A DNA stretch of 64,000 nucleotides from a virus. Taxonomy: Duplodnaviria; Caudoviricetes. The stretch is from the IMG/VR virus record IMGVR_UViG_2593339134_000001. One strand, written 5' to 3'. Below, one piece after another: positions 21,085-56,491 of this stretch (its first letter is position 1; every line of letters starts with the position of its first letter). The translations under genes were made by a program, and so were the position numbers. The notes under the pieces were generated by a model. It ran no database searches. It was not told where the DNA came from and saw only the letters and a list, made by a program, of their open reading frames with translations.

Positions 21085-24000
21085 ATGCTCTACCTGCTGT
21101 TCACGCCCGCCGACCTCCTGAAGGCCGAACAACTCGGCCTCTTCGACATGCCCACCCAGGTCCGCGCCCACACCCGCAAGGACGGCGCGGTCGTCGCGCC
21201 GCACATCCGCTTGCAGAAAAAGCGCCTGCATCCGCAAGGCGGACAGCACGACCTATTCGGCCACGCCGAGCCCAGGACCGAGGCCCACAAACTGGGGCGG
21301 CTGGGCCAGTTCGTCCACAAGCACGGCGGCTATCGGCGGCTGCTGTCGATCCTGGCGGGCCTGCCCGAGCCGCAGCGCGACAAGCTCCACGAGAGCATGG
21401 CCGAGGTGGCCCGCAAGCCGGTGGCGATGGTGCGGGAGTTTTTGGCGTTGGGGGCGAAGCATGAGGCACCGGCGAAGGGTGGGACGGCGCTGACCGGCGA
21501 GGAGGTGGCGGGGGAGGTCAGCCCGCACGATGCGCCCAGCCGGGGCGAGGTTGGCCCAAGCGAAGGCGACACGAAGGAAGAAAACGGCCATCGCTACGTC
21601 CTGCGCGATAGCCGGTGGCATCGAATCAATGAGGAATCTACGGATGAAAATACTGGACCTACCCAGGGTGATGAAGAACAAGGTGCATCGGCTGGTGCGG
21701 GCGGAACTGCGGACGAGGTCTCTGGCGTTCCATCGGAGGGTGGCGCGGGCGCAGAACCGGAAAGCACTGAACCAGCGCATGACCCAGTGGCCCACGCCGA
21801 GGCCAAGCAAGACCTTGCCGACGAACTCCTGACCAACCCCGACAGCGAACGGGCGGCGGAGTTGGCGCGGAAGGTGGCGGACGGCTTCAAGGCCGGCCAA
21901 CTGGAAAAGTTGCGGACCAAGATCGAGGAGATGGGCGGCAAGGCCAAGGTGGCCGAAGCCATCAAGCACGAAATCGGCAAGTCCGGCGGGTTGGATGCAG
22001 GCGGCGTCAAAAGCCGCGCGGTCGCCCTGGTCGATGGGCTGGCAACCTCCCTCAACCTGTCGCGCGATGAGGTGTTGGCCGAACTCGGCCTGAAGGAGGT
22101 CCGGCGCAAGGCCCGCGCCACCCCCCAGAAGCCCAAGAACACCTTGGAAACCGGCGGCGACTTTTCCGACGACGATCCCAATTCGCCCAACTATCGTTTC
22201 CGCGATACCGGCTACATCGGCGGCAGCCGCAAAGAACTGGCCGCCCAGATGATCCGGCAGGCGGGTCGCGAGGGACGGCAACTCCGCGCCACCGATATTG
22301 ATTGGCAGGAGATCGAACAAAACCCCCGCGAGGCCAAGGAACTCATCACCAAGAGCAACCTGTTCGGCGCCGTCGATTGGGATGCGCTCAAGGCGGGTGG
22401 CATGGAACCGGGGGCCGGGTTCCTTGTGGACCGCGTTTATGCCAGCCTTGCGCCCGAACCCCCCGAAGACAGCGCCCAGGCCCGGCGGGATTATGCCGTC
22501 GGCCTGGAAAGCCTCCGTACCCGCCTTGAAGCCTGCAAAACCCCCGACGAGGTGACGGATGCCCTCAACACCCTGCGCGACGAATACGAGGGTGCGATCC
22601 TGAATGCCCAGGAAGCGGCGGACTACCAGAAGGCGCAGGGGATTTACCGGGGGATCGCCGACCGGCGATGGGCGCTTTCCAAAGAGCGCGATGCGCTGGT
22701 GCAGGCCATGATCAACCCCGGCCACGAGGCCAGCGCCCTGGGGTATAAGCAACAACGCCGATTGGATAAGGGATGGAAGGCCGACCCGGCCTTGGAGGGG
22801 CAAATCCGCCAACTCAAGGCCGCTGCCGAGCAAGCGCGGGCCGACCTGGAAGAGTGGGATGCCCGGCACCCCGAGGTGGCGAAGGGCCGCACCGACAGCC
22901 CGATGGCGCAGGCCGTGGGCCAAGCCTACGGTGTGATGCGCTCCATCGTCGAAAAGGCCAAGGCCCGCAACCAAGAGGAGAACCCGGTCCATCGCGCTTG
23001 GAAACTCATGGGGCCGCGATTCCTGGGCATCCTCAACTACCGGCGGCGCGAGGGGTCGGACGCTTTCCGCGAACACCTGGCCGCAGCCAAAATCGGCAAG
23101 ATCGAGGATTGGTCCTGGGCCGAAAAGGAGCGCAAGACGGTCGATGCGCCCAAAGCCACGAAGGGCCAAGTCCGGTTTCAATTGCAAGTCGCCGAAACCT
23201 TCGAGCGCAAGGGCGGCCAGCCGGTCAAGGTGGCTTCCACGGCGGCGCTCAAGGCGATGTTCGGCCTGCGTGACGTGCAGTCCGGCAACTGGGTGCTGTC
23301 CGACCCGGCTGCGGCGGCATTCCACGTCCAGAAATCGGCGGAGGCATTGTCCGACTTGGCCGACCTGTTGGACGTGGAACCCGGCCAGATCGCGATGAAT
23401 GGTCGCGTGGCCCTGGCCTTCGGGGCGCGTGGGCGCGGCGCGGCTGGCGGCATGGCGGCCAGGGCGCATTATGAGCCTGTCCACCGCACCATCAACCTCA
23501 CGAAGCTGGGGGGCGGCGGCTCGCTGGGGCATGAGCTTTTCCATGCCATCGACAACCTCATCGGTGAAGTTGAAACCGGGCAAGCCAGCAGCAAGGACGT
23601 ATATGCCAGCGAAGACCCCGCGCTACTGCCAGAGGGGGAGTTGCGCGATGCCATGATCGCATTCCGCCGCGCCATGCTGGACGGCCCCCACCGGCTGGGC
23701 GAGAAGATCAGGTACACCGACAAGGACGTGAAGACGGCACGCTACAACATCGACCGATCCATCACGCGGGGCGTGGCCGGGATCATCAAGGCCGCGGGCG
23801 ATATCCATGCCGCCGTGCGGGCGGTGGATGCCCATTTCGCCGGACGCACGGACAAGATGTCCGAGAAGAACCGCAAGGACTGGCGCAAGATGGCCGCCGC
23901 CTATTACGACGCCAAGCCCGCCGGAGGGGAAGCCCTGGTCGAGTCCGGGCCGACCCTGTCCGCGTTCGCCTTCGAGGCCTCCAAACTCGACAGCGACGAC

Positions 24001-24264
24001 CACGGCAAATATTGGAGCAAGCCCCGCGAAATGGCGGCCAGGGCGTTCCAAGCGTGGTGCGAAGACCGGTTGGCGGGGCAAGGGCGGCGCAACGATTACT
24101 TGTCTTCGATGGCCGACAACCGCTACTACCGTCTATTGGATCAAAAACCCTTCCCCGAAGGCGAGGAACGCGACCGTATCAACATGGCGCTGGATGGCTT
24201 GGTGGTGGCGCTGCGGAAGGCCGGGACGCTGGCGAAGGCGTTTGGGCTGCTGAAAGCCGCCTAG
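21085..24264 (+). CDS. Large polyvalent protein with HExxH motif and C-terminal LPD1-like domain
   Basis: 'GSLGHELFHAID'; 'YWS.P.EM.ARAF..W....L......NDYL...PFP.GEER..IN'. Confidence 0.8.
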   Translation: MLYLLFTPADLLKAEQLGLFDMPTQVRAHTRKDGAVVAPHIRLQKKRLHPQGGQHDLFGHAEPRTEAHKLGRLGQFVHKHGGYRRLLSILAGLPEPQRDKLHESMAEVARKPVAMVREFLALGAKHEAPAKGGTALTGEEVAGEVSPHDAPSRGEVGPSEGDTKEENGHRYVLRDSRWHRINEESTDENTGPTQGDEEQGASAGAGGTADEVSGVPSEGGAGAEPESTEPAHDPVAHAEAKQDLADELLTNPDSERAAELARKVADGFKAGQLEKLRTKIEEMGGKAKVAEAIKHEIGKSGGLDAGGVKSRAVALVDGLATSLNLSRDEVLAELGLKEVRRKARATPQKPKNTLETGGDFSDDDPNSPNYRFRDTGYIGGSRKELAAQMIRQAGREGRQLRATDIDWQEIEQNPREAKELITKSNLFGAVDWDALKAGGMEPGAGFLVDRVYASLAPEPPEDSAQARRDYAVGLESLRTRLEACKTPDEVTDALNTLRDEYEGAILNAQEAADYQKAQGIYRGIADRRWALSKERDALVQAMINPGHEASALGYKQQRRLDKGWKADPALEGQIRQLKAAAEQARADLEEWDARHPEVAKGRTDSPMAQAVGQAYGVMRSIVEKAKARNQEENPVHRAWKLMGPRFLGILNYRRREGSDAFREHLAAAKIGKIEDWSWAEKERKTVDAPKATKGQVRFQLQVAETFERKGGQPVKVASTAALKAMFGLRDVQSGNWVLSDPAAAAFHVQKSAEALSDLADLLDVEPGQIAMNGRVALAFGARGRGAAGGMAARAHYEPVHRTINLTKLGGGGSLGHELFHAIDNLIGEVETGQASSKDVYASEDPALLPEGELRDAMIAFRRAMLDGPHRLGEKIRYTDKDVKTARYNIDRSITRGVAGIIKAAGDIHAAVRAVDAHFAGRTDKMSEKNRKDWRKMAAAYYDAKPAGGEALVESGPTLSAFAFEASKLDSDDHGKYWSKPREMAARAFQAWCEDRLAGQGRRNDYLSSMADNRYYRLLDQKPFPEGEERDRINMALDGLVVALRKAGTLAKAFGLLKAA

Positions 24265-24266
24265 CG

Positions 24267-25829: not shown

Positions 25830-28800
25830 ATGCCTTCTATCATCCTGGTCTTCCCCTCCGGCAACCGCTATCCCATCCCGCCCGGGCATTACCGCTTCGA
25901 TGACGCCCTGGCCAAGAGCCACGGGGCGGCCCCTGCCGGAAGCCGCTGGATCACGGTCCATCCCAACGGCCACGAAGAAAAGGGCGTCCCGGTCCTGGTC
26001 CAGGAACACAAACCCGGCTCCGGCGTGTACCACGTCATCGGCGGCGCGGGCGGCAAGCTCAACCACCTGCGCTTGCGCGGCCTGAAGCCCCAATCCGATT
26101 ACAAGCAGCACGCCCGCGAACGCCTGAAGGAAAAGCAACTCGTCGCCAAGCAACAGCGCAAACGCGACCAGGAAAGCGGCATGGCCGAGGCCAAGAAAGC
26201 GGCCAAGGCCGGTGTCCTGGACCGCAAGCGACAGAAGCAGGGCGAGTTCATCAATACCGTGGCCCAGGCCATGGGCTGGAAGGACCACGAGTTCAACGAA
26301 GCCGACCATGCCGACCTACCCGAGGCCGCGCAGAAGCAGGCCCGCGAACAGCATCACCGGGAAATGCTCAAGCGCGCCCACGAAGCCGTGAACCTGCAAC
26401 GCGACCGGCTGGTATCGGATCAGGAGGCCCGCGCCGAGGCCGGTCTGGGCGGTGTGCCGCTGACCACCGAGGACCCCGACAAACTATCCGTCGCCGACAT
26501 CGACCCGGTGAAGCCCGAGGGCGCGGGGGGACTGGGTTATTCCACCGATTTCAAGGCCCGCGCCGAGACCATGGGGGCGACCGACGAAGCCGTAAAGACC
26601 GAGGCCGCCCAGGTCAAGGCCGAACGGGAAGCCGGGAAGCCCAGGAAGGCGGAAGGGGAGGGTGGTGGTAAGAAAACCGCCGCCGGTGAAGGTGGGGGTA
26701 CCGCCAAACCCAAGGGGACCGCCGGGAAGATCGCCCAGGCGTTGGAAACCCTCCGCGAGGAACCCGCCACGGCGCCCTTGAAGAAACTGGTGGACGCCAA
26801 GACCGCCGTGAAGCTGATGAAGGCGCAGAAGGCGCTCAAACTCACGGAAAAAGCCGCGGTCGACGCCAACAAGGACATTGATAAATCCGACCGCATCAAG
26901 GCGTACAACCTTGAAGTGTCCGCCGATGATCCCGACCTGGATACCAAGGTCGCCGAAGACTTGGAAAACAACCTGCGCACCGCCGCCACCCGTTCATTCT
27001 TGGCGGAAGTCGCCGACAAGGACGAACAACAACTCCGGCGGCATATCGGTGTCGGCGCGTTCAACTCGATCAATTCCCTGGCCTTGGCCGCCGGGGGCGA
27101 TGCGCTGGTGGACCGCTCCGTGGTGGATGTGCTGGGCATCGCGGGCGCGGCGCAAGTCCTGGCCCGGCGGCTGCACGCCGATATGTCCAAGGCGGAAATC
27201 GAACAACTACAACAAGGCTTTGAGGATTGGCACGTAAACCATTACATGGAGACCTCCCAGGCCGTGCTGGACCAAGCCAAGGAACTACAAAAGCGGGCGG
27301 CGGAAATGGCGCTGGACGAGGCCCACGACGGCCACGACCTCGCCGCCGGGAAGGAAGTTATGCGGCGCAAGCTGGCCGCCCTGGCGGAATCCGACAAAAT
27401 CCTCGGCACCGCCCTGGGCGAGATGGAGGCCAACGCCGCGTTGGTCATGGCGCTGCGGCAGGGCAGGACCGATAAACCAGTCGAGGTGCCCCTGGGCGGC
27501 ATCGGTGACGAGGACGCCATCCGGCAGGTCCGCGCCATCGGCTTGAAGCCCGGCGACTACAGCCTCGACCGGATCGGCACCAACACGGTGTTGACGGTGA
27601 CGCCGGCGGGGCTGGACCGGCTGGCGAAGCCCATGGCCCGCGACGAGTTGACCCGCGTGCGCCGGAACCTGGACATCATCGAGGGCAAGCACGACGAGGA
27701 CGACTGGCTCCCGATGGGCGTGGCGAACCGGCCCGACCTCGGGATGCCGGATTTGAAACCGGGCATCGCGCCCACCCTGGCGGAACCCTTCCGGCCCGGC
27801 CCGGACCTTGCGCGGTCCATGCGCGACTATATCGGCGGGCGGATCGCGGATGGCGACAGCCCGGCGGACATCCTGGCGGACCTGCAATCGCAACCGATGA
27901 TCGACAAGGCCGGGGCCGACCGTTACCGCGACTACATGGCGGCGCTGGATGCGGTGATGCCGCTCAAAGACCCGAAGACCGGCAAACTCCGGCCCGTGGA
28001 AGCACTCAAGCCGGAACTCGAAAAGATGGCCGACGAGTTCACGGCGTCGCGCCATGGCGGCACCCTGGCCCCACTGCACCGGCAACGGTTCGAGGTGGAC
28101 CAGAAGGCGGTGGATGCACTGCATCGGGCATTGGCCGCGCACCCCGAAGGCGTGGCCGCCTACAAGTCCATCGGGGAACTGACGAACCAAGATCAGCGGG
28201 CGCTACGGGAATTCTTCCATGCCAACATCGCCAAGGAGGACGTGGACGCGGCGGACCTGCGGCACCGGTTGGAGCGAGTCCAGGGCGAGGAACCCGAGAA
28301 GGAAGTCGAGGATATGTTCGGGGAGGTTTCCGAGAACCCCGATTGGCGGGAATGGAAAGCGCACCGGGACCAACTCGCCGAAAAGGTCAACGCCGCTTCG
28401 TTGACTTGGGACAAGTACGCCAAGATGATGCGCGGCCACACCCACGCCTACGCCTCGATCCAGGATTTGATCCGGTCGAACGTCGCGCAGAAGTTCGCCG
28501 AGGAACACAACCGCCTGCGCCCCGACGCGCCGCTCAAACTGGGTCGGGAGGTGATCCGCGGCAACCTGAACCACCTGGACGCCGTGGACCCCAAGGCCCG
28601 CGACGAACGGCTGGCGAAGGAACGCGCCCTGGTGGATTCCCTGCGGAACCGCGAGGGCGGCAAATACGCGGCGGGGTCGGTGGCCGACAAGCTGGATGCG
28701 GCGCGGGAACGGCAGGAGGCGTTCGGACAGGCGCAAATCGGCCTGTTCGGCGGGGAGGACGACCTGTTCGGCGATACTTCGCCCGCGATGAAGGCGAAAC

Positions 28801-30497
28801 CACTCGGGGCCGATGAGCGCCATACCCTCGGCCATGCCGCCGAATCGCAAATCGCCCGGATGATGTCGATTGTGGGGCCGAATTTTCGGCCAGGGAAGCC
28901 CACCAAGATTTGGCGGCCCGTGATGGGGAGCCGCGATGCGGAAGGTGGGAAGAACAAGGATTTCGTGCGGCAACGGGCCATCAAGCACATCGTCGCGAAC
29001 GAGCGGACGGTGCTGGCCGCCGGGGTGGGCACCGGCAAGACGCTCGTGGGCCTGGGTGCCTTCACCCACCTGCACGGCCAGGGCAAGGCCAAGCGCGGCC
29101 TATTCTTGGTGCCGTCGGCGGTGCAGTCGCAGTTTTCCGGGGAAGCCCTGCGCTACCTCGAACCCGGCAAGTTCAATTGGCACATCGAACCCGGTGCCAG
29201 CCAGGCCGAACGCATCGCGGCCTACAAAGACCCGTCCAGGCACTTCGCGGTGATGACCCACGCGGGATTCCGCGACGACATGATCCACCTGGGCGCGAAA
29301 CACGCCGGCATCGACGAAAAGGCCATGTCCGAGCGCTTGGGCGCGATGAAACCGGCGGAGCGGCGGGCCTGGGCCAAGGGCGTGATGGACAAGGAAGGGA
29401 TCGATTTCGATTACCTGAACGTGGACGAGGGCGACAACCTCCTCAACCGGCGCGGGAAAGAGAATTCCACCCTGGCGAACGTGGTGGACTCGGTGTCGGC
29501 CCATACGCCCTATTACGTGTCGGCCTCGGCGGACCCGGTGAAGAACGACGTGTCGGAGTCGTTCGACGTGTTGGCGAAGATGGACCCCGAGCGCTACAAC
29601 GACCGCGCCGCGTTCCTGCGCCGCTACGGCCCGAACACGGAAGCCGCGCAGGAGGGCTTGAGGCGCGAAATGGCCCGCTACTGGTTCCCGGCCAGCGTGG
29701 AATCCGGCGTGAAGGCCGATAAGCGCGAGGAGCCAGTCGAGTTGACCCCGGACCAGCACGCCGCGCTCAAGGAGGTGTCGAAGCTGGCGGCGCGGGCCAG
29801 GATCGCCCGCATGGAAGGCAAGGTGGACGTGGACGCGCTCAGGCGGCTGTCGCCGACCTCGTTCCATGGCGTGCCGGAGGAGCGGCACGAGGCGCTTGCC
29901 AAGCAACTACAGGCCGGGCTGGGCATGGTGAAGGCGGCGGCCACGCGGCGGATCATCGACGCGCATCCCCAGGGGGCGAAGGTCGGGCGCATCGCCCAAC
30001 TGGCGAAGGAGCGCAAGGGCAAGCCGGGCGTGGTGTTCGCGCACAGCCTGGACGCCGTGAACGCCATCGCCGACCGGCTCAAGCGGGAAGGGCATCGCGT
30101 GGTGACGCTGACCGGGGTGGATTCCGGCAAGGACAAGGACGCCAAGCGGCTGGCGTTCCAACCGGAGGCCGGGGAGGCGAAGGCCGATATTATGGTGGCT
30201 TCGGACGCGGCGGCGGCAGGGATCAACTTGCAGCGGGGACAATGGCTCGTGCATAGCGACGTGCCCGACACGGCCCGGACCCACGCGCAGAGGTCGGGTC
30301 GGATCGACCGGGTGGGCCAAAGGAACGATGTGGAGTTGATCGACCTCGTTGCGAACCATCCAGCGGAACGGGCAGCGCGGGAACGGCTCAAGACCAAGTA
30401 TGGTTTGCGGGAGTTGATGACTTCGCCGATGGAGGGGCTGGATGATAGCGGTCTGGGTTATTTTCTCAGGCGGAGACAGGCGGAGCAGGGCGGGTAA
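25830..30497 (+). CDS. Large SNF2-family helicase/translocase (polyvalent, DarB-like helicase module)
   Basis: Walker A 'GVGTGKT', 'FLVP', motif II 'VDEGD', 'SADPVKN', 'AAGINLQ', 'QRSGRIDRVGQ'; about 1000-aa N-terminal extension. Confidence 0.88.
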   Translation: MPSIILVFPSGNRYPIPPGHYRFDDALAKSHGAAPAGSRWITVHPNGHEEKGVPVLVQEHKPGSGVYHVIGGAGGKLNHLRLRGLKPQSDYKQHARERLKEKQLVAKQQRKRDQESGMAEAKKAAKAGVLDRKRQKQGEFINTVAQAMGWKDHEFNEADHADLPEAAQKQAREQHHREMLKRAHEAVNLQRDRLVSDQEARAEAGLGGVPLTTEDPDKLSVADIDPVKPEGAGGLGYSTDFKARAETMGATDEAVKTEAAQVKAEREAGKPRKAEGEGGGKKTAAGEGGGTAKPKGTAGKIAQALETLREEPATAPLKKLVDAKTAVKLMKAQKALKLTEKAAVDANKDIDKSDRIKAYNLEVSADDPDLDTKVAEDLENNLRTAATRSFLAEVADKDEQQLRRHIGVGAFNSINSLALAAGGDALVDRSVVDVLGIAGAAQVLARRLHADMSKAEIEQLQQGFEDWHVNHYMETSQAVLDQAKELQKRAAEMALDEAHDGHDLAAGKEVMRRKLAALAESDKILGTALGEMEANAALVMALRQGRTDKPVEVPLGGIGDEDAIRQVRAIGLKPGDYSLDRIGTNTVLTVTPAGLDRLAKPMARDELTRVRRNLDIIEGKHDEDDWLPMGVANRPDLGMPDLKPGIAPTLAEPFRPGPDLARSMRDYIGGRIADGDSPADILADLQSQPMIDKAGADRYRDYMAALDAVMPLKDPKTGKLRPVEALKPELEKMADEFTASRHGGTLAPLHRQRFEVDQKAVDALHRALAAHPEGVAAYKSIGELTNQDQRALREFFHANIAKEDVDAADLRHRLERVQGEEPEKEVEDMFGEVSENPDWREWKAHRDQLAEKVNAASLTWDKYAKMMRGHTHAYASIQDLIRSNVAQKFAEEHNRLRPDAPLKLGREVIRGNLNHLDAVDPKARDERLAKERALVDSLRNREGGKYAAGSVADKLDAARERQEAFGQAQIGLFGGEDDLFGDTSPAMKAKPLGADERHTLGHAAESQIARMMSIVGPNFRPGKPTKIWRPVMGSRDAEGGKNKDFVRQRAIKHIVANERTVLAAGVGTGKTLVGLGAFTHLHGQGKAKRGLFLVPSAVQSQFSGEALRYLEPGKFNWHIEPGASQAERIAAYKDPSRHFAVMTHAGFRDDMIHLGAKHAGIDEKAMSERLGAMKPAERRAWAKGVMDKEGIDFDYLNVDEGDNLLNRRGKENSTLANVVDSVSAHTPYYVSASADPVKNDVSESFDVLAKMDPERYNDRAAFLRRYGPNTEAAQEGLRREMARYWFPASVESGVKADKREEPVELTPDQHAALKEVSKLAARARIARMEGKVDVDALRRLSPTSFHGVPEERHEALAKQLQAGLGMVKAAATRRIIDAHPQGAKVGRIAQLAKERKGKPGVVFAHSLDAVNAIADRLKREGHRVVTLTGVDSGKDKDAKRLAFQPEAGEAKADIMVASDAAAAGINLQRGQWLVHSDVPDTARTHAQRSGRIDRVGQRNDVELIDLVANHPAERAARERLKTKYGLRELMTSPMEGLDDSGLGYFLRRRQAEQGG

Positions 30498-30827: not shown

Positions 30828-31718
30828 ATGCCAACCGCTCAACAACTCCTATCCGCCTGCCCCGACTTCCTGAGCATCGACCTGATGCTCAAGGCCGAAC
30901 TCGCGACCGAAGGCGGGAAGCGCTTCATCTATATCGAGGCCAGCAACGAAGCCATGGATCAGCAAGGCGAAGTGGTCTTGCAAAAAGCCTTGCGCGATTC
31001 ATCGGACTGGTATTCCCGGTTCGGCAACCTCGATATCGACCACTACACCTTGATCGGCGCTAAAGCCGGTATCCCCGATTACATGCTGTTCGAGATCGGC
31101 CAGCCCCGCGAGGTTTCGTTCCATGGTGTGAAAACCTTCGTCAAGGGCGAGATTTATTCCGGCCAGGGGCCGGCGGCGGAACGCGCCAATTATTTCTGGT
31201 CCAGCCTGACCGATATCAATCCCCCGGCCCGCTGGAAGCCCTCGGTCGGTGGCGCGGTACTGGAAAAATCCATCGCGGTGGACCCGGAAACCGGCATGAA
31301 GAAGGCGATGATCGGGAAAGTGCGCTGGACCAATATCGGGTTCTCCAAGAACCCCGTCAACCAGGATGTCCCCATGGTGTCCACGGTGCCCTTCGACACC
31401 CTGGCGAAAAGCTGGGTGCCGGGCCTGGGCTACGACCTATCGAAGGCCCTGGATTCCACGGGCGCAACCACGAATACAGCCAGCCTGACCGGCGGCGCGG
31501 CCCTTGGGCGGCAGTCCTTGGACCGGAAGGCGCGCGGCTATTGGGACTTCCGGGACGCCTTCGCGGGCGACCTCGGCGAGGACCACCGCAGATTCAAGAC
31601 CCACGCCGATATGGTGCGCCATGCGGCCCACAAGTACGGCCTCGACGACGACCTGGCTTCCGAGTTCGTTGAGCGCTTCATGCACGACTGGAAGACAGCA
31701 AGAGAGAAACGGCAATGA
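30828..31718 (+). CDS. Prohead protease
   Basis: 'AS.EA.D.QGE.V', 'D.DH', 'SVGG', 'PVN' motifs of caudoviral prohead proteases; upstream of scaffold and capsid. Confidence 0.8.
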   Translation: MPTAQQLLSACPDFLSIDLMLKAELATEGGKRFIYIEASNEAMDQQGEVVLQKALRDSSDWYSRFGNLDIDHYTLIGAKAGIPDYMLFEIGQPREVSFHGVKTFVKGEIYSGQGPAAERANYFWSSLTDINPPARWKPSVGGAVLEKSIAVDPETGMKKAMIGKVRWTNIGFSKNPVNQDVPMVSTVPFDTLAKSWVPGLGYDLSKALDSTGATTNTASLTGGAALGRQSLDRKARGYWDFRDAFAGDLGEDHRRFKTHADMVRHAAHKYGLDDDLASEFVERFMHDWKTAREKRQ

Positions 31719-32338
31719 ACTTCGATTTCAACGCGATGATGGAAGAACTGGACCTGCTCAAGTCCCAGCGCGGCGACGGCGACGGCAAGATCAAGAAAGC
31801 CGCCGAAGAAGGCCACGAGGAACTGGATGGCGACGAGGACGGCAGCTACGGCGATGGCGGCGAGGACGACGGCTACATGGGCAAGTCCTTCGAGTTCGAG
31901 GTGGACGGCGAAAAGGTCCGCGGCTTCGACGCCACCGCGCTCGTCAAGTCCTTGCAGGACCGGCAGGCGGGCATCGCCGACGAAATGCAGAAAGGCTTCG
32001 GCCAGGTCGCGGCCCTGCTCCAGGCGCAGACCGACCTCCTGAAGAGCCAGGGCGTGGAGATGGCGTCCCTCCGGGCGAAGGTCGCCGACCTGTCGGGCCA
32101 GGGCAAGGGGCGCAAGTCCGCCGTGGCCGTGCATGGGCGCGAGTCCCTGGACCCGCTCGCCAAGAGCCTGGGCGACGATGGCGGATGGACCGTCGATACC
32201 CTGTTGGCGAAGGCCGACGCGCTGTTCGAGGCGGGCAAGCTGGGCACCACGGAATATCGCCAACTGGATGTCTGCGTCCGCAATGGCATCCAGCCCGACG
32301 CCAAATTGCTCCGCAAGGTCGTGGCCACCCAGCTTTAA
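31715..32338 (+). CDS. Scaffold-like protein
   Basis: Acidic/coiled-coil ORF between protease and capsid with several L-x-K-S motifs. Confidence 0.7.
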   Translation: MNFDFNAMMEELDLLKSQRGDGDGKIKKAAEEGHEELDGDEDGSYGDGGEDDGYMGKSFEFEVDGEKVRGFDATALVKSLQDRQAGIADEMQKGFGQVAALLQAQTDLLKSQGVEMASLRAKVADLSGQGKGRKSAVAVHGRESLDPLAKSLGDDGGWTVDTLLAKADALFEAGKLGTTEYRQLDVCVRNGIQPDAKLLRKVVATQL

Positions 32339-49766: not shown

Positions 49767-50492
49767 TCAGAGTCCCGCCCCCGGCTTGGGCCCGCCAGAA
49801 TCGCTGCTTCCAATCTGGACACCCTCGTGCTTGTGGTGGCGAAGGCCGATCTCGGCTCCACCATCAACGCCCCCGAGGACGACATCCCCATCCACCACCA
49901 GCGTCTTCGTGATATGCACATCGGCGGCGATGGTCAGGGCGTTGGATAGCGTCATCGTGGCCGTGCCGTCCGGATTCACCACAAGGTCGAAGGCGGGCGT
50001 CTGGATGCGGAAGTAGGTCGGCGTGCCGGAGGCCGGGACATGCCAATTCTTGTCGAAACCCTGGCCCTGGAACTCCCGGAACTCGGTGGACGCGCCCACC
50101 AGCACCTTGATCCCCGCCGGGTGTTGCCACTGGTAGTTCCCGGCGGCATCCACGGCGCTGAACACGCCCGAGGCGTGGCGCTGGATGCGCAGGTTCTTTT
50201 CCTTGAACGCCATCTGCGAAACCGGCGGGAACCGGAAGCCCAGGCAATGGGGCATCCCGTGTTGGTCGGTGGCGATGAGCGCCACCCGCTCCCGCTGGCC
50301 GAGCGGGGCCGTGGCCGGGTCTTGGCCGTGGCCCAAGACCGGGGCGGGCAGATCGATGGTGCCGCCGTCGGACGCGGCGTCCAGGCTGTAGACCGGCACC
50401 CCGACCAGGCGGCGGCCATCGCGCAGCGACACGCAGTCGATGGACGGGCCTTCGGGGTGGACGGCGATGACGCGGGCGTGTTCGAGCTTCAT
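49767..50492 (-). CDS. Baseplate central spike (gpV/gp45-like)
   Basis: N-terminal OB-like region, 'H.SG' beta repeats, C-terminal 'L..H.H.GV..G' metal-binding apex. Confidence 0.8.
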   Translation of the reverse strand: MKLEHARVIAVHPEGPSIDCVSLRDGRRLVGVPVYSLDAASDGGTIDLPAPVLGHGQDPATAPLGQRERVALIATDQHGMPHCLGFRFPPVSQMAFKEKNLRIQRHASGVFSAVDAAGNYQWQHPAGIKVLVGASTEFREFQGQGFDKNWHVPASGTPTYFRIQTPAFDLVVNPDGTATMTLSNALTIAADVHITKTLVVDGDVVLGGVDGGAEIGLRHHKHEGVQIGSSDSGGPKPGAGL

Positions 50493-51889
50493 GCGGCGGC
50501 GCGGACGAACAGGAGGGGAATCGACTTTATCATCTTGGGCCTCCCGGAATGGTCGAGCACCTTATCCTTGAATTCGGCAAAAGGCATCGTGGTCACGGGG
50601 CCGAGGAAGCGCGGATCGTCGTAGTGGCCCAGATAGGCGGCGACGGCGCTTTCCTTGTCGGGAAAGCCGATCATGCACTTATCCTCGTCCCAGTCCTTCC
50701 AATTCCCGGCCTTGCGCTGGTGGACGATATAGACGCTCTCGGCGTCCTCGTCCGGGCCGACGTAGACATCGACAGGGTCGCCGTCCGGGGCCACGCCGAG
50801 GCTTCCCCGGATATATCCATAATCGTGTTTCATCTTGATCGACCACGCGTGGCCGTCCGGGTCCGTGCCGGAGCGGGTGGAACCGGCGGGATTCTCGATG
50901 CTGATGTCTAGACCACGGAAGCGGCGATGCCCTTTTTTGTAATTCCCGGCCTGGATTTGGGCTGCGGTGGGTTGGGCCTTGTGCAGGCTCATGTATTCCA
51001 AAATGGCCTTTGGCATGGGTTCGCCGTTGGCGTCCACGCCGCCTGAAAGCTTTGGCACATGCTTTAGGTTAACCCCATTGAATACGGACAAAAGGCGATG
51101 TATAGTTACGGTAGACCCGGAATGAGAGGGATGTACGACTTCGGCTGGATTAGCTGAAGTATCGAGTCCCGGTCCTACCGGGTCTTCCACCTTGCTTTTC
51201 AGCACAGCCACATCATAAAGCTTCAATCTAGCCATTTCTGGCGGTCCAGCTAACGATTCCCGCACCGTCAGCTTCACAGCATAAAGGTTCCCATTAACCT
51301 TTAATGGTGCCACGAAAGTATGGAATGCCTCCGTATCAGATACCCGTCTAGCATCTGGCGGATTCTTATCCAGCCAAACGGCGCGACGAACCAAGTGAGC
51401 CAATTTTTCCACCACTTGGGCATCCATTGGCGCTTTGATCCCAGAAAAAGATTCTCCCTTGCCCTCCGCAGTAAATCGGATTTTCCGATTCATGTCCAAG
51501 TTTAGAATCTCGTGGCCCTGCAAACGTTCGGCATATACGCGCCGGGCCATATTTTGCAATATCTTTAAATCGCCCTGCCACCCAGGTATAGACAAAGAAG
51601 TAATATAAGCTGATTTTACCGGAATTTCCCAATCCCCGAACCAAACCTTGAACTCGGGCGTCCGAACGAGATTCCACTGCGACTCATTCAAATTCGACGG
51701 CTTGCCATTCGGGGCCAACCGCGCGTGGGGCGGCGGATGACCGAAACCGCCCCTATCGTTGCGCTCGTGCGACGACCAATAGCCGCCATTATTGCGGTAA
51801 TACCCGCGCACATGGGTTTTGAGGAATAAAACGGGTATCACCATCGATTTCCGCAGGGGTAGGGATCGGTCGGGGAAAGGCATCTTCAT
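50489..51889 (-). CDS. Polyvalent protein: LPD3-like domain plus inorganic pyrophosphatase-like (InPase) domain
   Basis: 'LAPNGKPSNL...QW..VRTP.FK.WFGDWE'; 'F.APL..NG..Y.VKLTVRE'; 'PT.AQ..AGNYKKGH...GL.ISIENP.GS.R.G', 'YGYI', 'DGD.VDVY.G', 'DEDK.M.GF'. Confidence 0.85.
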   Translation of the reverse strand: MKMPFPDRSLPLRKSMVIPVLFLKTHVRGYYRNNGGYWSSHERNDRGGFGHPPPHARLAPNGKPSNLNESQWNLVRTPEFKVWFGDWEIPVKSAYITSLSIPGWQGDLKILQNMARRVYAERLQGHEILNLDMNRKIRFTAEGKGESFSGIKAPMDAQVVEKLAHLVRRAVWLDKNPPDARRVSDTEAFHTFVAPLKVNGNLYAVKLTVRESLAGPPEMARLKLYDVAVLKSKVEDPVGPGLDTSANPAEVVHPSHSGSTVTIHRLLSVFNGVNLKHVPKLSGGVDANGEPMPKAILEYMSLHKAQPTAAQIQAGNYKKGHRRFRGLDISIENPAGSTRSGTDPDGHAWSIKMKHDYGYIRGSLGVAPDGDPVDVYVGPDEDAESVYIVHQRKAGNWKDWDEDKCMIGFPDKESAVAAYLGHYDDPRFLGPVTTMPFAEFKDKVLDHSGRPKMIKSIPLLFVRAAA

Positions 51890-51901: not shown

Positions 51902-53053
51902 TTATTTCCGTTTCAACAGGTTATCGAGATAGGCCGCGAACTGTGGATCGTCGTTGGGCTTGGCGTCCGGCAACTTGAGCCAAGTGCCGCGGCAATGGGG
52001 GTGCATGACGCCAGAAGCAAGCCACCAAAGCTCGTCCGGTTCTCGCGCTATCAGCACACCACCCACCCGCTTGCGGGGCGAGGCCGAGCGCCCGATGTTG
52101 GTTTTTCCGGCCCATATCATGGTCTCGCCGTCCAGCGGAACGGTATCGGGCGATACCACCTTCATGATCCGACCATCCACGCGGCGGCAGGCGCTACAAG
52201 CCCCCCGGTACATCTCCACCCGTTTGAGCCGGGCACTGGGCGGGAATCCCGCAACCATGCCCTGGTTCTGCATCTCCGCCGTTTCGGTCACGGCGATCCG
52301 CCGCCAATCGCGGTTCCACCGCCCGAATTGGTCCAGCAGTTCTCCCCGCAGGTCGTCCGCCTTGTTGCCCAGGCTGACCGCCTCCTGGTGCCCGACCAGC
52401 GTTTTGCGGATGGCGCTCCGCATGTTGTTGGTCAACTGGACGATGTTTTCCGCCGCCCTGGCCCGGCCATAGTCCAGCACGGCCCGCTGGACCTTCGTGG
52501 CTTCCAACTGTCGGGCCTGCCGCACCGCGTCGGCATCGAGGAGACGTTGCGCTTGCCGTTCGGTGATGTTCGCCATATTGGCCTGGACCCGCCCCATGAG
52601 CGTGGCCCGCGTCGCCAGCCAGTCGGCCTCGGCCACGAGTTGATCGTGCGGGAGGTAGCGCTGAAAGAGGTAATCCACCACCAGCATCCAGTCATCTAGG
52701 GCGAAGCGCTGGGGTGGGAGGGTTTCGAGGTAAAGCTTGGCGATGGATAGTTCGGCCCGGCTCCAGCGCCCCATCAGGCCGGGCCGTTCGACCGGGGCGC
52801 GGGTACCAGGCCGGTGCGGCTCGAACTTGAGCCAGCGGTCGAGTTCGGCCTGTAGCCCGGCGATTTGCATCAGGCCGCGCCGGGTGAAGCGCTCGATGAG
52901 ATCGCGCAGGAACGGCGAGTGGTGCGGCTCCCAGATGTCGCCGCCGGGCGGTTCATCGGAGATAGCCTTGTAGATGTGTTCAAGCGCCGCGTCGGTTTGC
53001 GCGGGCGTGAGTGTGGAAATGTCGAGAAGCGTGGCGGTGTCGGGGTCGATCAT
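51902..53053 (-). CDS. MuF/gp7-like minor head protein
   Basis: 'RDW.RIA.TE', 'AC..C', 'HPHCRG'. Confidence 0.8.
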   Translation of the reverse strand: MIDPDTATLLDISTLTPAQTDAALEHIYKAISDEPPGGDIWEPHHSPFLRDLIERFTRRGLMQIAGLQAELDRWLKFEPHRPGTRAPVERPGLMGRWSRAELSIAKLYLETLPPQRFALDDWMLVVDYLFQRYLPHDQLVAEADWLATRATLMGRVQANMANITERQAQRLLDADAVRQARQLEATKVQRAVLDYGRARAAENIVQLTNNMRSAIRKTLVGHQEAVSLGNKADDLRGELLDQFGRWNRDWRRIAVTETAEMQNQGMVAGFPPSARLKRVEMYRGACSACRRVDGRIMKVVSPDTVPLDGETMIWAGKTNIGRSASPRKRVGGVLIAREPDELWWLASGVMHPHCRGTWLKLPDAKPNDDPQFAAYLDNLLKRK

Positions 53054-53091: not shown

Positions 53092-53289
53092 CTAATCGCG
53101 CTCTGCGTCGATTTTTTCCATCATCTTCCTAACTTCCGGTCCATCGATAATATACCCCCAGCTAATCGGTTTTTCCTTCCCGGCATCCGCATAGGGAATC
53201 CAACCTTTCCCGCCACCCACATAAACCTCAGTGGGGTTGCTACGGGATGGACCACGGAATAATGCACCTTCGTTTTCTATGAAAACCAT
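53092..53289 (-). CDS. Small protein coupled to the RelA/SpoT-like gene (candidate immunity protein)
   Basis: ATG 53289 overlaps the upstream 3' end; same lower-GC composition as the RelA/SpoT domain. Confidence 0.6.
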   Translation of the reverse strand: MVFIENEGALFRGPSRSNPTEVYVGGGKGWIPYADAGKEKPISWGYIIDGPEVRKMMEKIDAERD

Positions 53290-54671
53290 TTTCGTTTGCC
53301 TTTTTTCAGAATACACAACAACATTATAGACTTTTGAAGGTTTTGCTTCAAACCTTTCGCCCTATCCCAGGCTTCCGCATATAGCCTCTTTGATTCGCTT
53401 TGAGCATGTCTATACCTAGACTTATCCTCTTCATGCCAATGATCTTCTAGCCCAGTATCCGTCCCATACTTGGCGTGAATATCGCGAATCACATTATAAT
53501 GTTCATGTCCTGCGCTTTTCGCCGCCAATATATGTGACAGATGCAGCTGGATTTCCGCCAACATATCCGAACCTGGAACTTTTACGATCAACAGGGCGTC
53601 CCGATAACCTTCCGGCGTTGGATGCTGGAATCTATCCTTCGGGGCTTTGGCTAATTGGATGCCTGAGGCTTTCAAGCCTTCCACAACCTTATGAAGTTCT
53701 TCCACCGTGTCACATTTGATTGAAGCCCTAAGAACATCGCGGAGTTTTTTCCACTTCCCGGCGTAATCGGCTCGGACCTTTTGCCTAGCCCGCTCCTTAC
53801 CCTTTAATGGAGCAACCACTATCGCTGGCCCTTTAGCGCCCAATGCCTCCTCGACGCTTCCAGAAACTTTGCCCCCTATAATTTCCGCCACGTTTGCCAA
53901 TGCCTTTTTGAATTTTGGAAGAGCTTTTTCTGCCGAGGCATACAACTCGTTTTCGGTGTTATGTGGTTGGAATGCGTCTTCCGGTAAATCACTCACATCC
54001 CCGAACAGCGACTTATCTCTGCCCCCATTACCGGGATCAGCGGGGGGCTTCGATCCGCCACCACCACCATTCCCGGCCTTAAACCCTTTAACATCGTGCC
54101 ACTCGACCTTGTGAATGCCTCCGCGCTCGTCGTGGACCGTGGCGCCCTGTTCACCCACCGAATGCACCCGCCCCGACATGCCGCCATCGCCAAAATGCAG
54201 GGTATCGCCGGGCTCGATGTTGTGCGTGCCGTAGCCGAGTTTGGACCCGCGAGGCGGCTCAAGCTTTTTCTGCCGCTTGTCGTCGTACTCGTGGACATAG
54301 GTGCCATCGCCACGGATATAGCCCTTGACGTGGGATTTCAGGAACAGGATCGGGATAGCCTTCATCATCGCCTTTCCCCCATTGTCGCCGCCCTCTTTCT
54401 CGGCATGCCGCACGAACACCCGCCGCCCGCGCTTATCCTCGGCCAGGAAACCATCCTCACCCCGGTCCACCACCTTGAGGGCGTGTTCGGCCCGTTTGCG
54501 GTGGCCCTGGACATCCTCCCACGGCACCCGGCGCTTGCCCTTGGCGTGGTGGACTACACAGCCAGCGGTCCCGGCGGACAACACCTTGCCGGGCATGACG
54601 CCATGTTCGGGGTGGCGGAAGTAGAGTTCGTCGCCGGGGAGGGCTGTGGGGGTGGATTGCGCTGTCTTCAT
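53277..54671 (-). CDS. Two SH3/Tudor-like repeats plus C-terminal RelA/SpoT-like nucleotidyltransferase domain
   Basis: 'LK...RA..K', 'D..RA.I', 'GYRD', 'EIQ', 'H..Y' synthetase-like motifs; no HD hydrolase domain. Confidence 0.8.
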   Translation of the reverse strand: MKTAQSTPTALPGDELYFRHPEHGVMPGKVLSAGTAGCVVHHAKGKRRVPWEDVQGHRKRAEHALKVVDRGEDGFLAEDKRGRRVFVRHAEKEGGDNGGKAMMKAIPILFLKSHVKGYIRGDGTYVHEYDDKRQKKLEPPRGSKLGYGTHNIEPGDTLHFGDGGMSGRVHSVGEQGATVHDERGGIHKVEWHDVKGFKAGNGGGGGSKPPADPGNGGRDKSLFGDVSDLPEDAFQPHNTENELYASAEKALPKFKKALANVAEIIGGKVSGSVEEALGAKGPAIVVAPLKGKERARQKVRADYAGKWKKLRDVLRASIKCDTVEELHKVVEGLKASGIQLAKAPKDRFQHPTPEGYRDALLIVKVPGSDMLAEIQLHLSHILAAKSAGHEHYNVIRDIHAKYGTDTGLEDHWHEEDKSRYRHAQSESKRLYAEAWDRAKGLKQNLQKSIMLLCILKKGKRKWFS

Positions 54672-56491
54672 ACTTCGATCCGATAAACCGTCATGCCAAA
54701 ACTCTTGCCCATGGGTTCGCCCGACGGTTGTTGGGCACCACCCTTTTTGCCAGCAAATCCGGGCTTTCCGGCGGAATTCCCACCCGGTTGCCCCCCTCCC
54801 TCATCCTCCCCTTGATCGCCCGCCACGGGCCGCCTGGGCGGCTGTTTGCCACCGTCCGCACCACCGTCCGCGCCCTCGTCCGGCTCGCCCTCCCCATCCT
54901 CATCGAACCCTTCCCCGAAGTCCTGGGAGTCCTGCTGCTGCCGGGCCTGCTGCATCTGCACATACAGCCCCATCAAATTGGGATTCACCGGGGCCGCGCC
55001 CATCGTCGGGTCGGGGTGCTTATCCTGACCGTCCTGGGCCCGCATCTCGTCCACGGTCAGGTAGAGCTTCTGCCGCTCCTGCTTGGCCTGCCGATCCTCC
55101 TCGTCCAGGCCGGTCCAGCGGAACACATACTTCTCATCGAAGGTCGGCAGGATGAAATCGGAAAAGGTGTCCTCGTAGAACCGCAGGAGCGGGATCAGCC
55201 CTTTGTCCCGGCTGTTGGCCAGTTTTTCCCCGGTATCGTTGCCGTTGCCGATACCACCATTGCGGGAGCTGAACGACTCGAAGTTGATTTCGTCCGGCGA
55301 CATGCCGAAGATCGCGCACGAGATGGCCGTGAGGAAGGTCATCCATTTCGAGAAGTACATCTCGTTGAAATCGGCATTCAGCGGCGTATAGGTCGCGCCG
55401 GATTCCTTATCCTTGGCGGCCAGCACTGGCAGGGTCCATTTCTGGTTGATCCCCTTGACCATGGCGTTCCAATAGGTTTTGAACGCCAGCATGTCCTGCT
55501 TATCGAAATCCCCGTAGATTTGCAGCAATCCCTTCGGAATCGCGTTGTCCGTGAACCCGGTGATATTGAGGTTCATCGCGTTCAAGAACCCCGTCACCAC
55601 CCGGATCAACAAATCCACCTCCGACAGGCCGTAGCCACCCGAGGCCACGTTCGATACCGGGTTCCGGCACTGGTAGATCAAATCATCATGGGTGTAGGCG
55701 CAGCGGATGCGGGATTGGATGACTTGGAGGGCGAAGATTTCGTCGTGGCCTTGGTAGCCCGCCTCCGTGCAGAGCCGGATCGTGGCCCCGTCGATGGCAT
55801 AGAACCCATCCATCCCCAGGCGGGCATCGCGCTTCATTTCGGTTTCGATGGGCGCGGAATCCAGGGTCAGGCTATCCCGGACGCTCACCGCCATGAAGTC
55901 GCCCAGCGACGTGCGGCCCATGCGCTGGCGGGCGCGGGGATCGAATTCCCAGCCACAATTCGCCATGAACCGGGATAGGAGTCCGATGCCCTGCTTTTCG
56001 GGGCCGGTGAGCTTGTGGTCCTTGTCGCGGTGGCGGATGGCGAAACCCGGCCCCTCCCCGCTGTCGTTCTGGCGGGCGAAGCGGCGGACGTGGTTCAACC
56101 GGGTTTGGATGATGAGGCTGATCGGGGGCTGGGCAGCCATGGCCCGCAGGGTGTCGAAGCCGAGTTGCGAGGGCCGGTCGTAATACTCGCCCTGGATGCC
56201 GATTTGCCAGTCGTCGAGGCGGACGGACTTCATCCGCACGCCCTGGGCGTTCTCGCTCGGGAACGGCACGCGGACGGGGGCGGCGGCTTTCAGCAATTCT
56301 TGCCGGACCGCCTGTTCGCGCAGGTAATCCACCAGGATTTGCATGCTGTCGGGGCTGGAAAGCCCTTTGGCGAGGTCGCCGGCGGTGGGCGCGTAGGTTC
56401 GATGGAGTTCGCCGAGGGCGTCACGTCGCTCGCCGGGCGGGGCGCGGTCGTCGAAGGCTACGGATTGGGGGGGGTCGGGTGGGCGCGTCAT
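54668..56491 (-). CDS. Portal protein
   Basis: 'II.TR', 'RDSL..D', 'DGATIR', 'YGLSE', 'F.....P.G.L', 'M.F.KW..FL....CA.FG..P.EI'; acidic tail. Confidence 0.9.
   Translation of the reverse strand: MTRPPDPPQSVAFDDRAPPGERRDALGELHRTYAPTAGDLAKGLSSPDSMQILVDYLREQAVRQELLKAAAPVRVPFPSENAQGVRMKSVRLDDWQIGIQGEYYDRPSQLGFDTLRAMAAQPPISLIIQTRLNHVRRFARQNDSGEGPGFAIRHRDKDHKLTGPEKQGIGLLSRFMANCGWEFDPRARQRMGRTSLGDFMAVSVRDSLTLDSAPIETEMKRDARLGMDGFYAIDGATIRLCTEAGYQGHDEIFALQVIQSRIRCAYTHDDLIYQCRNPVSNVASGGYGLSEVDLLIRVVTGFLNAMNLNITGFTDNAIPKGLLQIYGDFDKQDMLAFKTYWNAMVKGINQKWTLPVLAAKDKESGATYTPLNADFNEMYFSKWMTFLTAISCAIFGMSPDEINFESFSSRNGGIGNGNDTGEKLANSRDKGLIPLLRFYEDTFSDFILPTFDEKYVFRWTGLDEEDRQAKQERQKLYLTVDEMRAQDGQDKHPDPTMGAAPVNPNLMGLYVQMQQARQQQDSQDFGEGFDEDGEGEPDEGADGGADGGKQPPRRPVAGDQGEDEGGGQPGGNSAGKPGFAGKKGGAQQPSGEPMGKSFGMTVYRIEV

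Follow-up and report, generated by a model that had tools for sequence, protein, structure and literature searches.

Why should the head proteins of a prophage and four large enzymatic proteins encoded near them share one degenerate four-residue motif, in which a hydrophobic residue and any residue are followed by lysine and then alanine or serine? The question is raised by a 64,000-nucleotide stretch of DNA (IMG/VR record IMGVR_UViG_2593339134_000001, Caudoviricetes; the whole stretch is called the window here), which is part of a 4.63-Mb contig in a 5.48-Mb bacterial genome and is prophage-coding from its first bases on. A preliminary description of the window listed copies of the motif, all of which are present in the translations, and read them as a cleavage and targeting signal that links head proteins to packaged cargo. 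Computation supports that reading from several sides, namely enrichment and conservation of the motif, a protease with the modelled fold of T4 gp21, cargo domains of the polyvalent type, gene position, and a tag specific to the cargo. To our knowledge, the signals by which phage-delivered proteins are packaged have been worked out in very few systems, essentially in T4 and partly in the phiKZ-like phages and P1. It is argued below that the motif is probably the cleavage site of the head protease and, on the cargo, belongs to a cleavable capsid-targeting tag of the T4 kind. One simple sequence rule across a clade of ~90-kb phages and prophages appears to set both the cuts of the head protease and the proteins that are loaded.

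Gene identities were taken from PHROGs and Pfam. The five head proteins and the four putative cargo proteins are the following (positions in the window; aa, amino acids).

30828..31718, plus strand: prohead (head maturation) protease, 296 aa (phrog_1028, E 1.6e-31)
31715..32338, plus strand: scaffolding protein, 207 aa, homologous to gp021 of Bordetella phage PHB04 and to the scaffold of Pseudomonas phage Jeremy, with invariant site lysines
32372..33880, plus strand: major capsid protein (MCP), 502 aa, SPO1/phi812 type (phrog_752, E 5.9e-94)
54668..56491, minus strand: portal protein, 607 aa (PF04860, E 9.6e-12)
51902..53053, minus strand: MuF-like head morphogenesis protein, 383 aa (phrog_2468, E 4.7e-4, a weak match)
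21085..24264, plus strand: cargo protein 1 (LPD1 protein), 1059 aa (PF18796 LPD1, E 2.1e-20, C-terminal)
25830..30497, plus strand: cargo protein 2 (SF2 helicase), 1555 aa (Helicase_C, E 5.3e-11; DEAD, E 5.3e-6)
50489..51889, minus strand: cargo protein 3 (LPD3-InPase), 466 aa (InPase, E 1.3e-48, residues 310-443; LPD3, E 4.2e-23)
53277..54671, minus strand: cargo protein 4 (RelA/SpoT-like), 464 aa (RelA_SpoT, PF04607, 21.0-22.7 bits, below the cut-off of 27)

The plus-strand head genes are those of the head maturation protease, the adjoining scaffold-like protein and the SPO1/phi812-type MCP, and the minus strand carries the genes for the terminase large subunit, portal, MuF-like protein, sheath, tube and a spike with a GpV apex motif. 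The order protease, scaffold, MCP is the same in PHB04, Jeremy, Yersinia phage fHe-Yen8-01 and Bacillus phage SPO1.

The motif was counted in a loose form, [LMIVF].K[AS], and in a strict form, [LM].K[AS]. When the loose form was compared with 2,000 shuffles of each protein over 45 open reading frames (ORFs) of the window, 19 copies were observed in the five head proteins against 3.49 expected (5.4-fold) and 25 in the four cargo proteins against 9.88 (2.5-fold). The 36 other ORFs showed no enrichment (16 against 16.73). Per protein, the scaffold holds 7 copies against 0.67 expected and the protease 6 against 0.82; the MuF-like protein (1 against 0.51) and the portal (2 against 0.81) are not enriched individually. 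Because the motif had been picked after reading these same proteins, a genome-wide control was made. In the host genome, with 4,184 likely coding ORFs and a mean strict-motif density of 0.689 per 1000 aa, the scaffold ranks first (29.0 per 1000 aa) and the protease second (20.3). The pattern recurs in PHB04 (scaffold 7 against 0.74 expected, protease 5 against 0.82) and in Jeremy (6 against 0.62 and 6 against 0.94), and three-way scaffold alignments of the window, PHB04 and Jeremy show the motif lysines to be invariant despite 32-36% identity. It is also present in fHe-Yen8-01. The SPO1 scaffold gp3.3 (locus L084, 41927-42661) is full of h-x-K-S copies (h, hydrophobic), ~11 in number, with 5 strict motifs against 0.46 expected, so the Lys-type site seems to go back to the ancestor of SPO1-type head modules.

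An alignment-based scan of IMG/VR yielded 67 loci with a related protease, where a single protease sequence used as query had given none. The plus-strand ORFs of these loci were grouped into families with blastp, redundant sequences were removed, and counts of the strict motif per family gave the following results.

Scaffold family (49 sequences): 297 observed, 19.9 expected (15-fold)
Protease family (44): 165 observed, 14.8 expected (11-fold)
Capsid protein family (41): 47 observed, 13.2 expected
Portal family (15): 21 observed, 7.0 expected
InPase family (7): 9 observed, 2.0 expected
Helicase family: 81 observed, 58.2 expected
MuF family: 6 observed, 7.2 expected
Sheath family: 5 observed, 10.1 expected
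Tube family: 1 observed, 2.2 expected
Adaptor family: 6 observed, 10.1 expected

Tail and neck families in the same loci carry the strict motif at 0.45-0.67 of expectation, and together with the window counts this answers in the affirmative the check proposed with the preliminary description, that is, enrichment in head genes over tail and non-structural genes. When all a.bc patterns were counted without bias in the scaffolds, the top three were L.KS (129 against 5.0 expected), M.KS (69 against 2.0) and M.KA (55 against 3.7), and 297 of the 816 scaffold lysines lie inside the motif. The site logo reads acidic or small, T/E/D, L/M, A/I/V, K, S/A, and then L (50-65%), M or F. The motif as first noted is too wide: the real site is [LM]-x-K-[AS], with a preference for L, M or F in the next position, and copies inside cargo proteins that begin with I or V are probably chance. 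A separate observation concerns the gp014-like family (window 47299-48240, minus strand, and relatives), in which the motif occurs 22 times against 2.5 expected; this 8.8-fold excess stems from one or two conserved L-R-K-A sites (e.g. RIALRKALRR), and the window copy reads LRKT.

In the scaffold the copies are LLKS 14, IKKA 26, MGKS 55, LVKS 76, LLKS 108, LAKS 148 and LAKA 164 (six strict, seven loose), and during head maturation this protein would be chopped at ~six places. In the MCP the motif is LFKA at residues 36-39 (nucleotides 32477-32488), and the predicted propeptide comprises residues 1-38, ending DLFK↓ALDST (arrows mark putative cuts); these 38 residues would be taken off in the same process. 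A site before the mature capsid protein was found in 41 of 41 dereplicated relatives (29 by an anchor pattern, 12 more seen in the N-termini). The MCP matches Gp6.1 in PDB chain 9vel_C (E 7.6e-32), with ALNKALEAG aligned to the DLFKALDST site, and the SPO1 capsid protein reads ALNKALEAG at this position. The first residue of another PDB chain, 9row_B (439 residues), aligns near the residue after the MCP motif lysine, which is suggestive only. No statement on the mature N-terminus of SPO1-type capsid proteins was found in the literature, although older papers on capsid processing in SPO1, A511 and phage K might report the capsid cleavage site. The portal carries LLKA 66 and MGKS 594, the latter 11 residues from its end (nucleotides 54701-54712) in the tail PMGK↓SFGMTVYRIEV; of 15 dereplicated relatives, 11 have a C-terminal K[SA]FG[LM]P tail, as do PHB04 and Jeremy. 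In the MuF-like protein, which is 51% identical to PHB04 gp030, the site is HIYK↓A at residues 27-30, and h.K[AS] stands at the same place in 18 of 18 relatives. The protease may trim the last 11 residues of the portal and the first ~29 residues of the MuF-like protein.

The protease itself carries MLKA 20, LQKA 51, LEKS 145, MKKA 157, LAKS 192 and LSKA 204, with lysines K22, K53, K147, K159, K194 and K206; LQKA 51 and MKKA 157 are additional to the copies listed earlier. A search of the PDB with its sequence gave no match. An AlphaFold model made with a 44-sequence alignment reached a mean predicted local distance difference test score (pLDDT) of 80.8 (41.2, unusable, without the alignment), and the only confident PDB matches of this model in Foldseek were three chains of T4 gp21 (5jbl A-C, E 1.3e-6 to 5.3e-6, probability 1.0), with a template modelling (TM) score (target) of 0.54-0.60 and 13-14% identity in the structural alignment. 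Herpesvirus assemblins were matched weakly (probability 0.3-0.54). As modelled, the protease has a T4 gp21/assemblin-like fold. H72, S139, K22, K194 and K206 are invariant in 44 protease sequences, and His72 and Ser139 are candidate catalytic residues; the catalytic pair of T4 gp21 is H85/S140 (PMC12991175, accessible passages). The enzyme would be a serine protease of the T4 gp21/herpesvirus assemblin fold, with this candidate pair, whose recognition site would be [L/M]-x-K plus A or S, in most cases with L, M or F next, and the cut would most likely fall between K and A/S. The model places K194 and K206 in a linker of low confidence (178-235), which joins the protease domain to a C-terminal helical domain. 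This position would fit self-release of the protease, and the enzyme may cut itself there, ahead of the helical domain. Protease residues 203-236 (nucleotides 31434-31535) are 68% identical to MCP residues ~35-68 (nucleotides 32474-32575), with the common pattern DLSKALDST...LTGGAALG.QSLDR. This likeness, which surfaced as the second match in a genome search (E 9.3e-6), suggests that the protease may enter the prohead by mimicking the N-arm of the capsid protein.

On the cargo families a short N-terminal leader is found, which ends at a K[AS] site that would be the protease's own. These hydrophobic leaders read MKPILFLK↓A in helicases, MLIFFSK↓A in LPD1/methylase proteins, METKILFFK↓S in a Zeta-toxin-domain protein and MLK↓A in a NUDIX protein, and behind them there usually stands HV.GY.R.DG..V..H (here called the hairpin) or RWITVHPNG. 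C-terminal tails have the mirror form, e.g. PKMIK↓SIPLLFV. Under a rule by which at least three of the four residues before K[AS] are hydrophobic, within the first 45 residues, leaders are present in the 67 loci in 3/3 LPD1-type and 18/27 helicase-type proteins and in 9/374 unassigned ORFs; none was found among 49 scaffolds, 41 capsid proteins, 30 sheaths and 13 portals. C-terminal tails were found in 3/7 InPase, 1/6 RelA and 1/4 LPD1 proteins, versus ~0-1% in most other families, the exceptions outside the cargo being the portal (11/15) and the scaffold (2/49). When the six frames of the 5.48-Mb genome were searched, the hairpin pattern had three copies, all in cargo genes of the window; the strict pattern proved too narrow in the 67 loci, where it gave 2 true copies and 1 false match (a tube protein). 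No Pfam family was found for leader or hairpin. A word-indexed protein search with the N-terminal 60 residues of the InPase protein returned only itself and one other protein, and tblastn with a junction peptide yielded 7 weak phage records (E 4e-3 to 0.8), which are leads only. A Sec-type signal peptide was judged unlikely for the leader, in which the hydrophobic run is of 4-6 residues and stands at most 1-2 residues after the initiator Met. For targeting, the hydrophobic IP-h-LF peptide between sites is a likelier element than the four-residue motif itself.

Cargo protein 1 starts with the leader MLYLLFTPADLLK↓A and the hairpin-like VRAHTRKDGAVVAPHIR, contains the string HELFH, and ends in the C-terminal LPD1 domain and the tail LRKAGTLAKAFGLLKAA. 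Its motif copies are LLKA 11 and the C-terminal LRKAGTLAKAFGLLKAA, so that strict sites stand at the two ends only, and its leader and hairpin are common to PHB04 gp027 and the LPD1 proteins of IMG/VR. The label 'peptidase-like' of this protein comes from the HELFH string only: Pfam gave no significant zincin or metallopeptidase domain (best Peptidase_M91, E 0.21), and no methylase domain was detected with it either. The protein has 1059 aa in the window versus 1613 aa in the congeneric genome G001, with nearly identical ends, and LPD1-type relatives of ~1600 aa carry a methyltransferase domain (locus L007), so the window protein may have lost that module. In cargo protein 2, LAKS 27 closes a degenerate leader, MPSIILVF...ALAK↓S, which is followed by RWITVHPNG; it is 58% identical to PHB04 gp025, and its relatives begin MKPILFLK[AS]...RWITVHPNG, with the leader in 18 of 27.

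Cargo protein 3 is ordered as leader, (LRKS)MVIPVLFLKT, hairpin, HVRGYYRNNGGYWSSHER, LPD3, LHK↓A, InPase and tail, PKMIK↓SIPLLFVRAAA. Its copies are LRKS 12, followed by MVIPVLFLKT, LHKA 302, five residues before the InPase match, and the terminal MIKSIPLLFVRAAA. Sites flank the InPase domain in every arrangement seen, whether it is free-standing (PHB04 gp028 and locus L013), C-terminal (the window) or upstream of a helicase (loci L018 and L051). Cargo protein 4, whose start overlaps the portal stop codon (ATGA), has an N-terminal domain of ~100 aa, the junction AMMK↓AIPILFLK↓SHVKGYIRGDGTYVHEY (nucleotides 54282-54368), a RelA/SpoT-like C-terminal region and the tail NLQK↓SIMLLCIL, with LQKSIMLL at 445. 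The junction (AMMK↓AIPILFLK↓SHVKGY) carries both halves of the tag and recurs in PHB04 gp034, locus L053 and G001. The motif had been placed at termini or domain borders of the cargo, and the listed copies stand as stated with one qualification: MMKAIPILFLKS of cargo protein 4, at residues 102-113, is internal and not N-terminal. The InPase (E 1.3e-48) and helicase (Helicase_C, E 5.3e-11) labels of the earlier reading are well matched, and the RelA/SpoT-like label is kept with reserve, as the match stays below threshold and the resemblance is at motif level only (EIQL); a relative, locus L072, has a full PF04607 match (62.2 bits).

InPase, LPD1 and LPD3 are Pfam families derived from polyvalent proteins, which were predicted to be packaged and injected, with processing mainly assigned to MPTase domains (Iyer et al. 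2017; PMC5512222, accessible passages). Each window cargo protein has two recognised domains at most (LPD3 + InPase), and relatives show fusions of InPase with helicase (L018), InPase with RelA_SpoT (L072) and N6_Mtase with SNF2 (L053). All cargo genes of PHB04 lie between portal and protease, an interval that holds an HD phosphohydrolase, a phosphatase, MuF, a 2097-aa methyltransferase, an 'Ulx-like' protein and a 1518-aa helicase; in Jeremy the interval holds only a MuF-like gene, and the leader-bearing genes are at 86-91 kb instead. Between the window and G001 structural proteins are 82-100% identical, mostly at least 90% (the lowest being a baseplate-region protein, 11173-12606), the InPase protein is 57.6% identical, and the RelA-like protein aligns over only 238 residues (66.8%). 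Leaders, junctions and tails are kept in G001 despite this divergence of the cargo, and so the tags also seem to behave like conserved boundaries of exchangeable cassettes.

From this material we infer cleavage at the motif and its scissile bond, and packaging, targeting and injection of the cargo. The LPD1 protein, the helicase, the LPD3-InPase protein and the RelA/SpoT-like protein would be packaged cargo of the polyvalent type, each with a short hydrophobic peptide (consensus IP-h-L-F-L) bounded by sites at the N-terminus, the C-terminus or a module junction. This peptide may be a tag that directs the cargo into the capsid and is then cleaved off, as with the T4 capsid targeting sequence (CTS); inside the head the protease would release the enzyme modules, which would be ejected together with the DNA.

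Several observations weigh against this interpretation. In the window the helicase is not individually enriched (6 loose motifs against 4.5 expected), and among the relatives neither its family nor the MuF family (6 against 7.2) is clearly so. The leader of the window helicase is degenerate, in many leaders F takes the place of L or M at the first motif position, and the InPase leader closes with K-T instead of K-A/S; LRKS 12 of the InPase protein is absent in G001. In the protease, K53 lies in a predicted helix and K147 in a predicted strand, not in loops. The summed counts cover homologous sequences and are not independent, and what counts for more is that each scaffold holds many copies of the motif, which persist at low identity. 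A weak experimental hint in the other direction, in favour of packaging, comes from the GenBank record of fHe-Yen8-01, where 'particle associated' stands on two proteins with leaders, a NUDIX protein and a 2146-aa ADP-ribosyltransferase; the label is not stringent, because terminase, protease and scaffold bear it too. No paper on fHe-Yen8-01 and no proteomics for PHB04 were found in the literature. Full-text literature searches found no experimental data on cleavage, packaging or injection in this clade, and the window prophage is rearranged relative to its relatives (below) and may be non-functional. Some of these points would also be explained if the true protease site were confined to scaffold, protease, capsid and portal, with the cargo copies and the leader serving folding, oligomerisation, membrane association or outside docking, and the enzymes acting in the producing cell. 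The lack of clear enrichment in the helicase family (81 against 58.2), the I or V that internal cargo copies often have at the first position, the place of the Jeremy leader-bearing genes outside the portal-protease interval and the absence of stringent proteomic evidence for cargo in particles all speak for such unpackaged enzymes. This is nevertheless unlikely, since the leaders share the K[AS] context at their ends and are almost exclusive to cargo families, the cargo genes lie within the head module in PHB04 and G001, their domains come from families defined on virion-associated polyvalent proteins, and the portal bears the same kind of C-terminal tail.

L, K, A and S abound in the scaffolds, which are helical; two of the copies in the protease fall within predicted secondary-structure elements, and per-protein shuffles ignore helical periodicity. 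The motif could for these reasons be a non-proteolytic interaction or structural element, e.g. a helix feature for scaffold-coat or scaffold-portal binding, conserved for assembly. Such a role is decidedly unlikely given that the same four residues recur in unrelated contexts (capsid propeptide boundary, portal tail, protease linker, cargo ends) with little conservation of their neighbours, and that the capsid site has a propeptide-like position in a protein encoded beside a gp21-fold protease gene; the start of 9row_B near the residue after the motif lysine points the same way, as a suggestion only. Processing of the cargo by a cargo-borne zincin-like metallopeptidase, following the MPTase-mediated processing of polyvalent proteins proposed by Iyer et al. 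(PMC5512222, accessible passages), or by a host protease instead of the prohead protease, is highly improbable: it has the HELFH string of gene 21085 in its favour, but Pfam finds no metallopeptidase domain there (Peptidase_M91, E 0.21, being the best match), and the motif is densest in scaffold and protease, also in loci such as L008, L014 and L016, in which no LPD1-type ORF was assigned upstream of the protease (their flanks are unannotated and no MPTase search was made). That the pattern is chance, a short degenerate motif picked post hoc from the proteins in which it was read and seen in other window ORFs about as often as expected (~17 expected, 16 seen), is barely credible. It was replicated in relatives outside the data of the earlier reader (PHB04, Jeremy, the 67 loci, fHe-Yen8-01 and SPO1), it came out on top of the unbiased pattern count, and scaffold and protease hold ranks 1 and 2 among 4,184 ORFs; for the head proteins chance is excluded.

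Cleavage by the head protease, as preferred here, has parallels in known systems. The succession of hydrophobic, any, charged and small residues is similar to the T4 head protease consensus, L/I-x-E, and to the herpesvirus assemblin site, V/L-x-A↓S. Lysine would stand before the cut here, as against glutamate in T4. Herpesvirus assemblin, to which the weak fold matches point, shares the site logic (hydrophobic, any, cut residue, Ser/Ala) but has Ala, not Lys, before the cut and belongs to a eukaryotic virus. The prohead protease consensus of phiKZ and SPN3US is S/A/G-x-E, and we know of no PILFLK-type shared leader reported for these phages, which have genomes of 240-280 kb. They are alike in that one head protease trims many packaged ejection or inner-body proteins at a short consensus (PMC10052503, PMC7411985, PMC5694885, accessible passages). 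T4 gp21 and the CTS of internal proteins such as IPIII and Alt resemble the present system in the protease fold (Foldseek), in an N-terminal leader of ~8-14 residues that ends in the protease's own recognition site, in a scaffold cut at many sites and a capsid protein that loses an N-terminal propeptide, and in packaged enzymes delivered with the DNA (in part from accessible passages of PMC5512222 and PMC12991175). The differences are that the leader here is strongly hydrophobic (PILFLK) and that of T4 amphipathic, that tags here also stand at C-termini and internal junctions, that the cargo consists of polyvalent-protein modules, and that the window protease has no sequence similarity to gp21.

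In the P1 Dar system (DarA, DarB, Ulx, Hdf, DdrA/B), large methylase/helicase cargo is packaged in the head and tied to head morphogenesis; the methyltransferase, 'Ulx-like' protein and helicase of PHB04 stand at the equivalent place, and the N6_Mtase + SNF2 fusion of L053 belongs to the same comparison. Unlike DarB, the window cargo has a helicase only, with no methylase domain (methylases occur in L007, L053 and PHB04 gp027), and P1 uses a different head module. With the polyvalent proteins the window shares domain families (InPase, LPD1, LPD3, RelA/SpoT, SNF2 helicase), a context beside virion genes and predicted packaging and injection; the accessible passages of PMC5512222 name no cleavage motif or leader and give processing mainly to MPTase, and the window modules are mostly split into separate genes with a tag each. 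The MuF-fused polymorphic toxins of temperate phages also have variable effector modules, RelA/SpoT included, fused to or beside MuF (PMC5512222, accessible passages), whereas in the window MuF is encoded by a gene of its own and the effectors come with leaders of their own. Phage 7-7-1 was set aside as a comparison, its published head being of the different HK97 type.

Full-text literature, including the accessible passages of PMC5512222, PMC9503643, PMC12282133 and PMC12991175, yielded no description of the motif or the leader; older papers on capsid processing in SPO1, A511 and phage K were outside its scope. Capsid targeting and prohead-protease processing are known as a principle, and the Lys-type motif and the leader appear new relative to the literature found. 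In a bolder and more tentative form, for which the odds are less than even, [L/M]-x-K↓[S/A]-I-P-h-L-F-L-K↓[S/A/T] might be a portable capsid-loading tag for either protein end as well as a cassette boundary for effector swapping; an assemblin-fold protease with Lys before the cut, and not cargo metallopeptidases, might process polyvalent proteins, with a reach from proteobacterial ~90-kb myoviruses to SPO1-type heads of Gram-positive phages. A tag of eight residues could in that case load arbitrary proteins into these capsids. If the main reading were confirmed, injected effectors would be predictable from sequence alone, the polyvalent-protein hypothesis would gain a concrete and testable processing mechanism, and the exchange of effector modules between related phages would be explained (cargo 57-67% identical, structural proteins 82-100%, tags retained). 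It would also supply a very short tag with which foreign proteins could be loaded into capsids.

By sequence comparison, the window prophage belongs to the ~90-kb PHB04/Jeremy/Dolphis clade of myoviruses, with a head module of the SPO1 type. In blastn with two head-gene stretches, its relatives include the ~90-95-kb myoviruses Bordetella phage PHB04, Pseudomonas phages Jeremy and Dolphis and Aeromonas phage ST4, and a tblastn comparison of the PHB04 proteome with the window confirmed the kinship. Named phages of the clade have Bordetella, Pseudomonas, Aeromonas, Yersinia, Escherichia, Enterobacter and Morganella as hosts, and there are many metagenomic relatives. Among 31 related genomes searched, the protease was found in 2, the window's own genome and the congeneric G001. 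In G001 (G001:C1:2770724-2838046) portal, cargo, protease, capsid and sheath genes are collinear, in this order, on one strand. Comparison of positions 13000-49800 with G001, PHB04 and Jeremy showed that an LPD1-to-capsid/neck block (~22-38 kb) is inverted and relocated in the window, which is why its head module is split over two strands; all genes of the block look intact.

Two paralogous anti-repressor (Ant) genes, at 39074-39874 (minus strand) and 48938-49720 (plus strand), flank the gp014-sheath-tube block in inverted orientation and could have mediated one inversion. The remaining head gene of the minus strand is given below.

58060..60141, minus strand: terminase large subunit (phrog_675, E 2.9e-75), in head-module context, with 1 motif against 1.08 expected and no motif pattern

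Directly after the InPase cargo gene, with a 4-base ATGA overlap, stands the gene for a spike-like protein (49767-50492, minus strand; GpV apex motif PF18946, E 2.5e-4), a homologue of PHB04 gp006, which lies in the tail module of that phage. Within the row of head-neck genes, an ORF at 35767-36495 (plus strand) has ~69-70% nucleotide identity to phage genes annotated as GH19 endolysin or glycoside hydrolase. Three islands of low G+C content, at 16000-20400, 40000-42000 and 56500-58000 (0.385-0.505 versus ~0.65 nearby), contain ORFs such as 18812-20197 (461 aa) and 56838-57647 (269 aa, between portal and terminase, with no PHROG match), and these islands are likely later insertions (morons).

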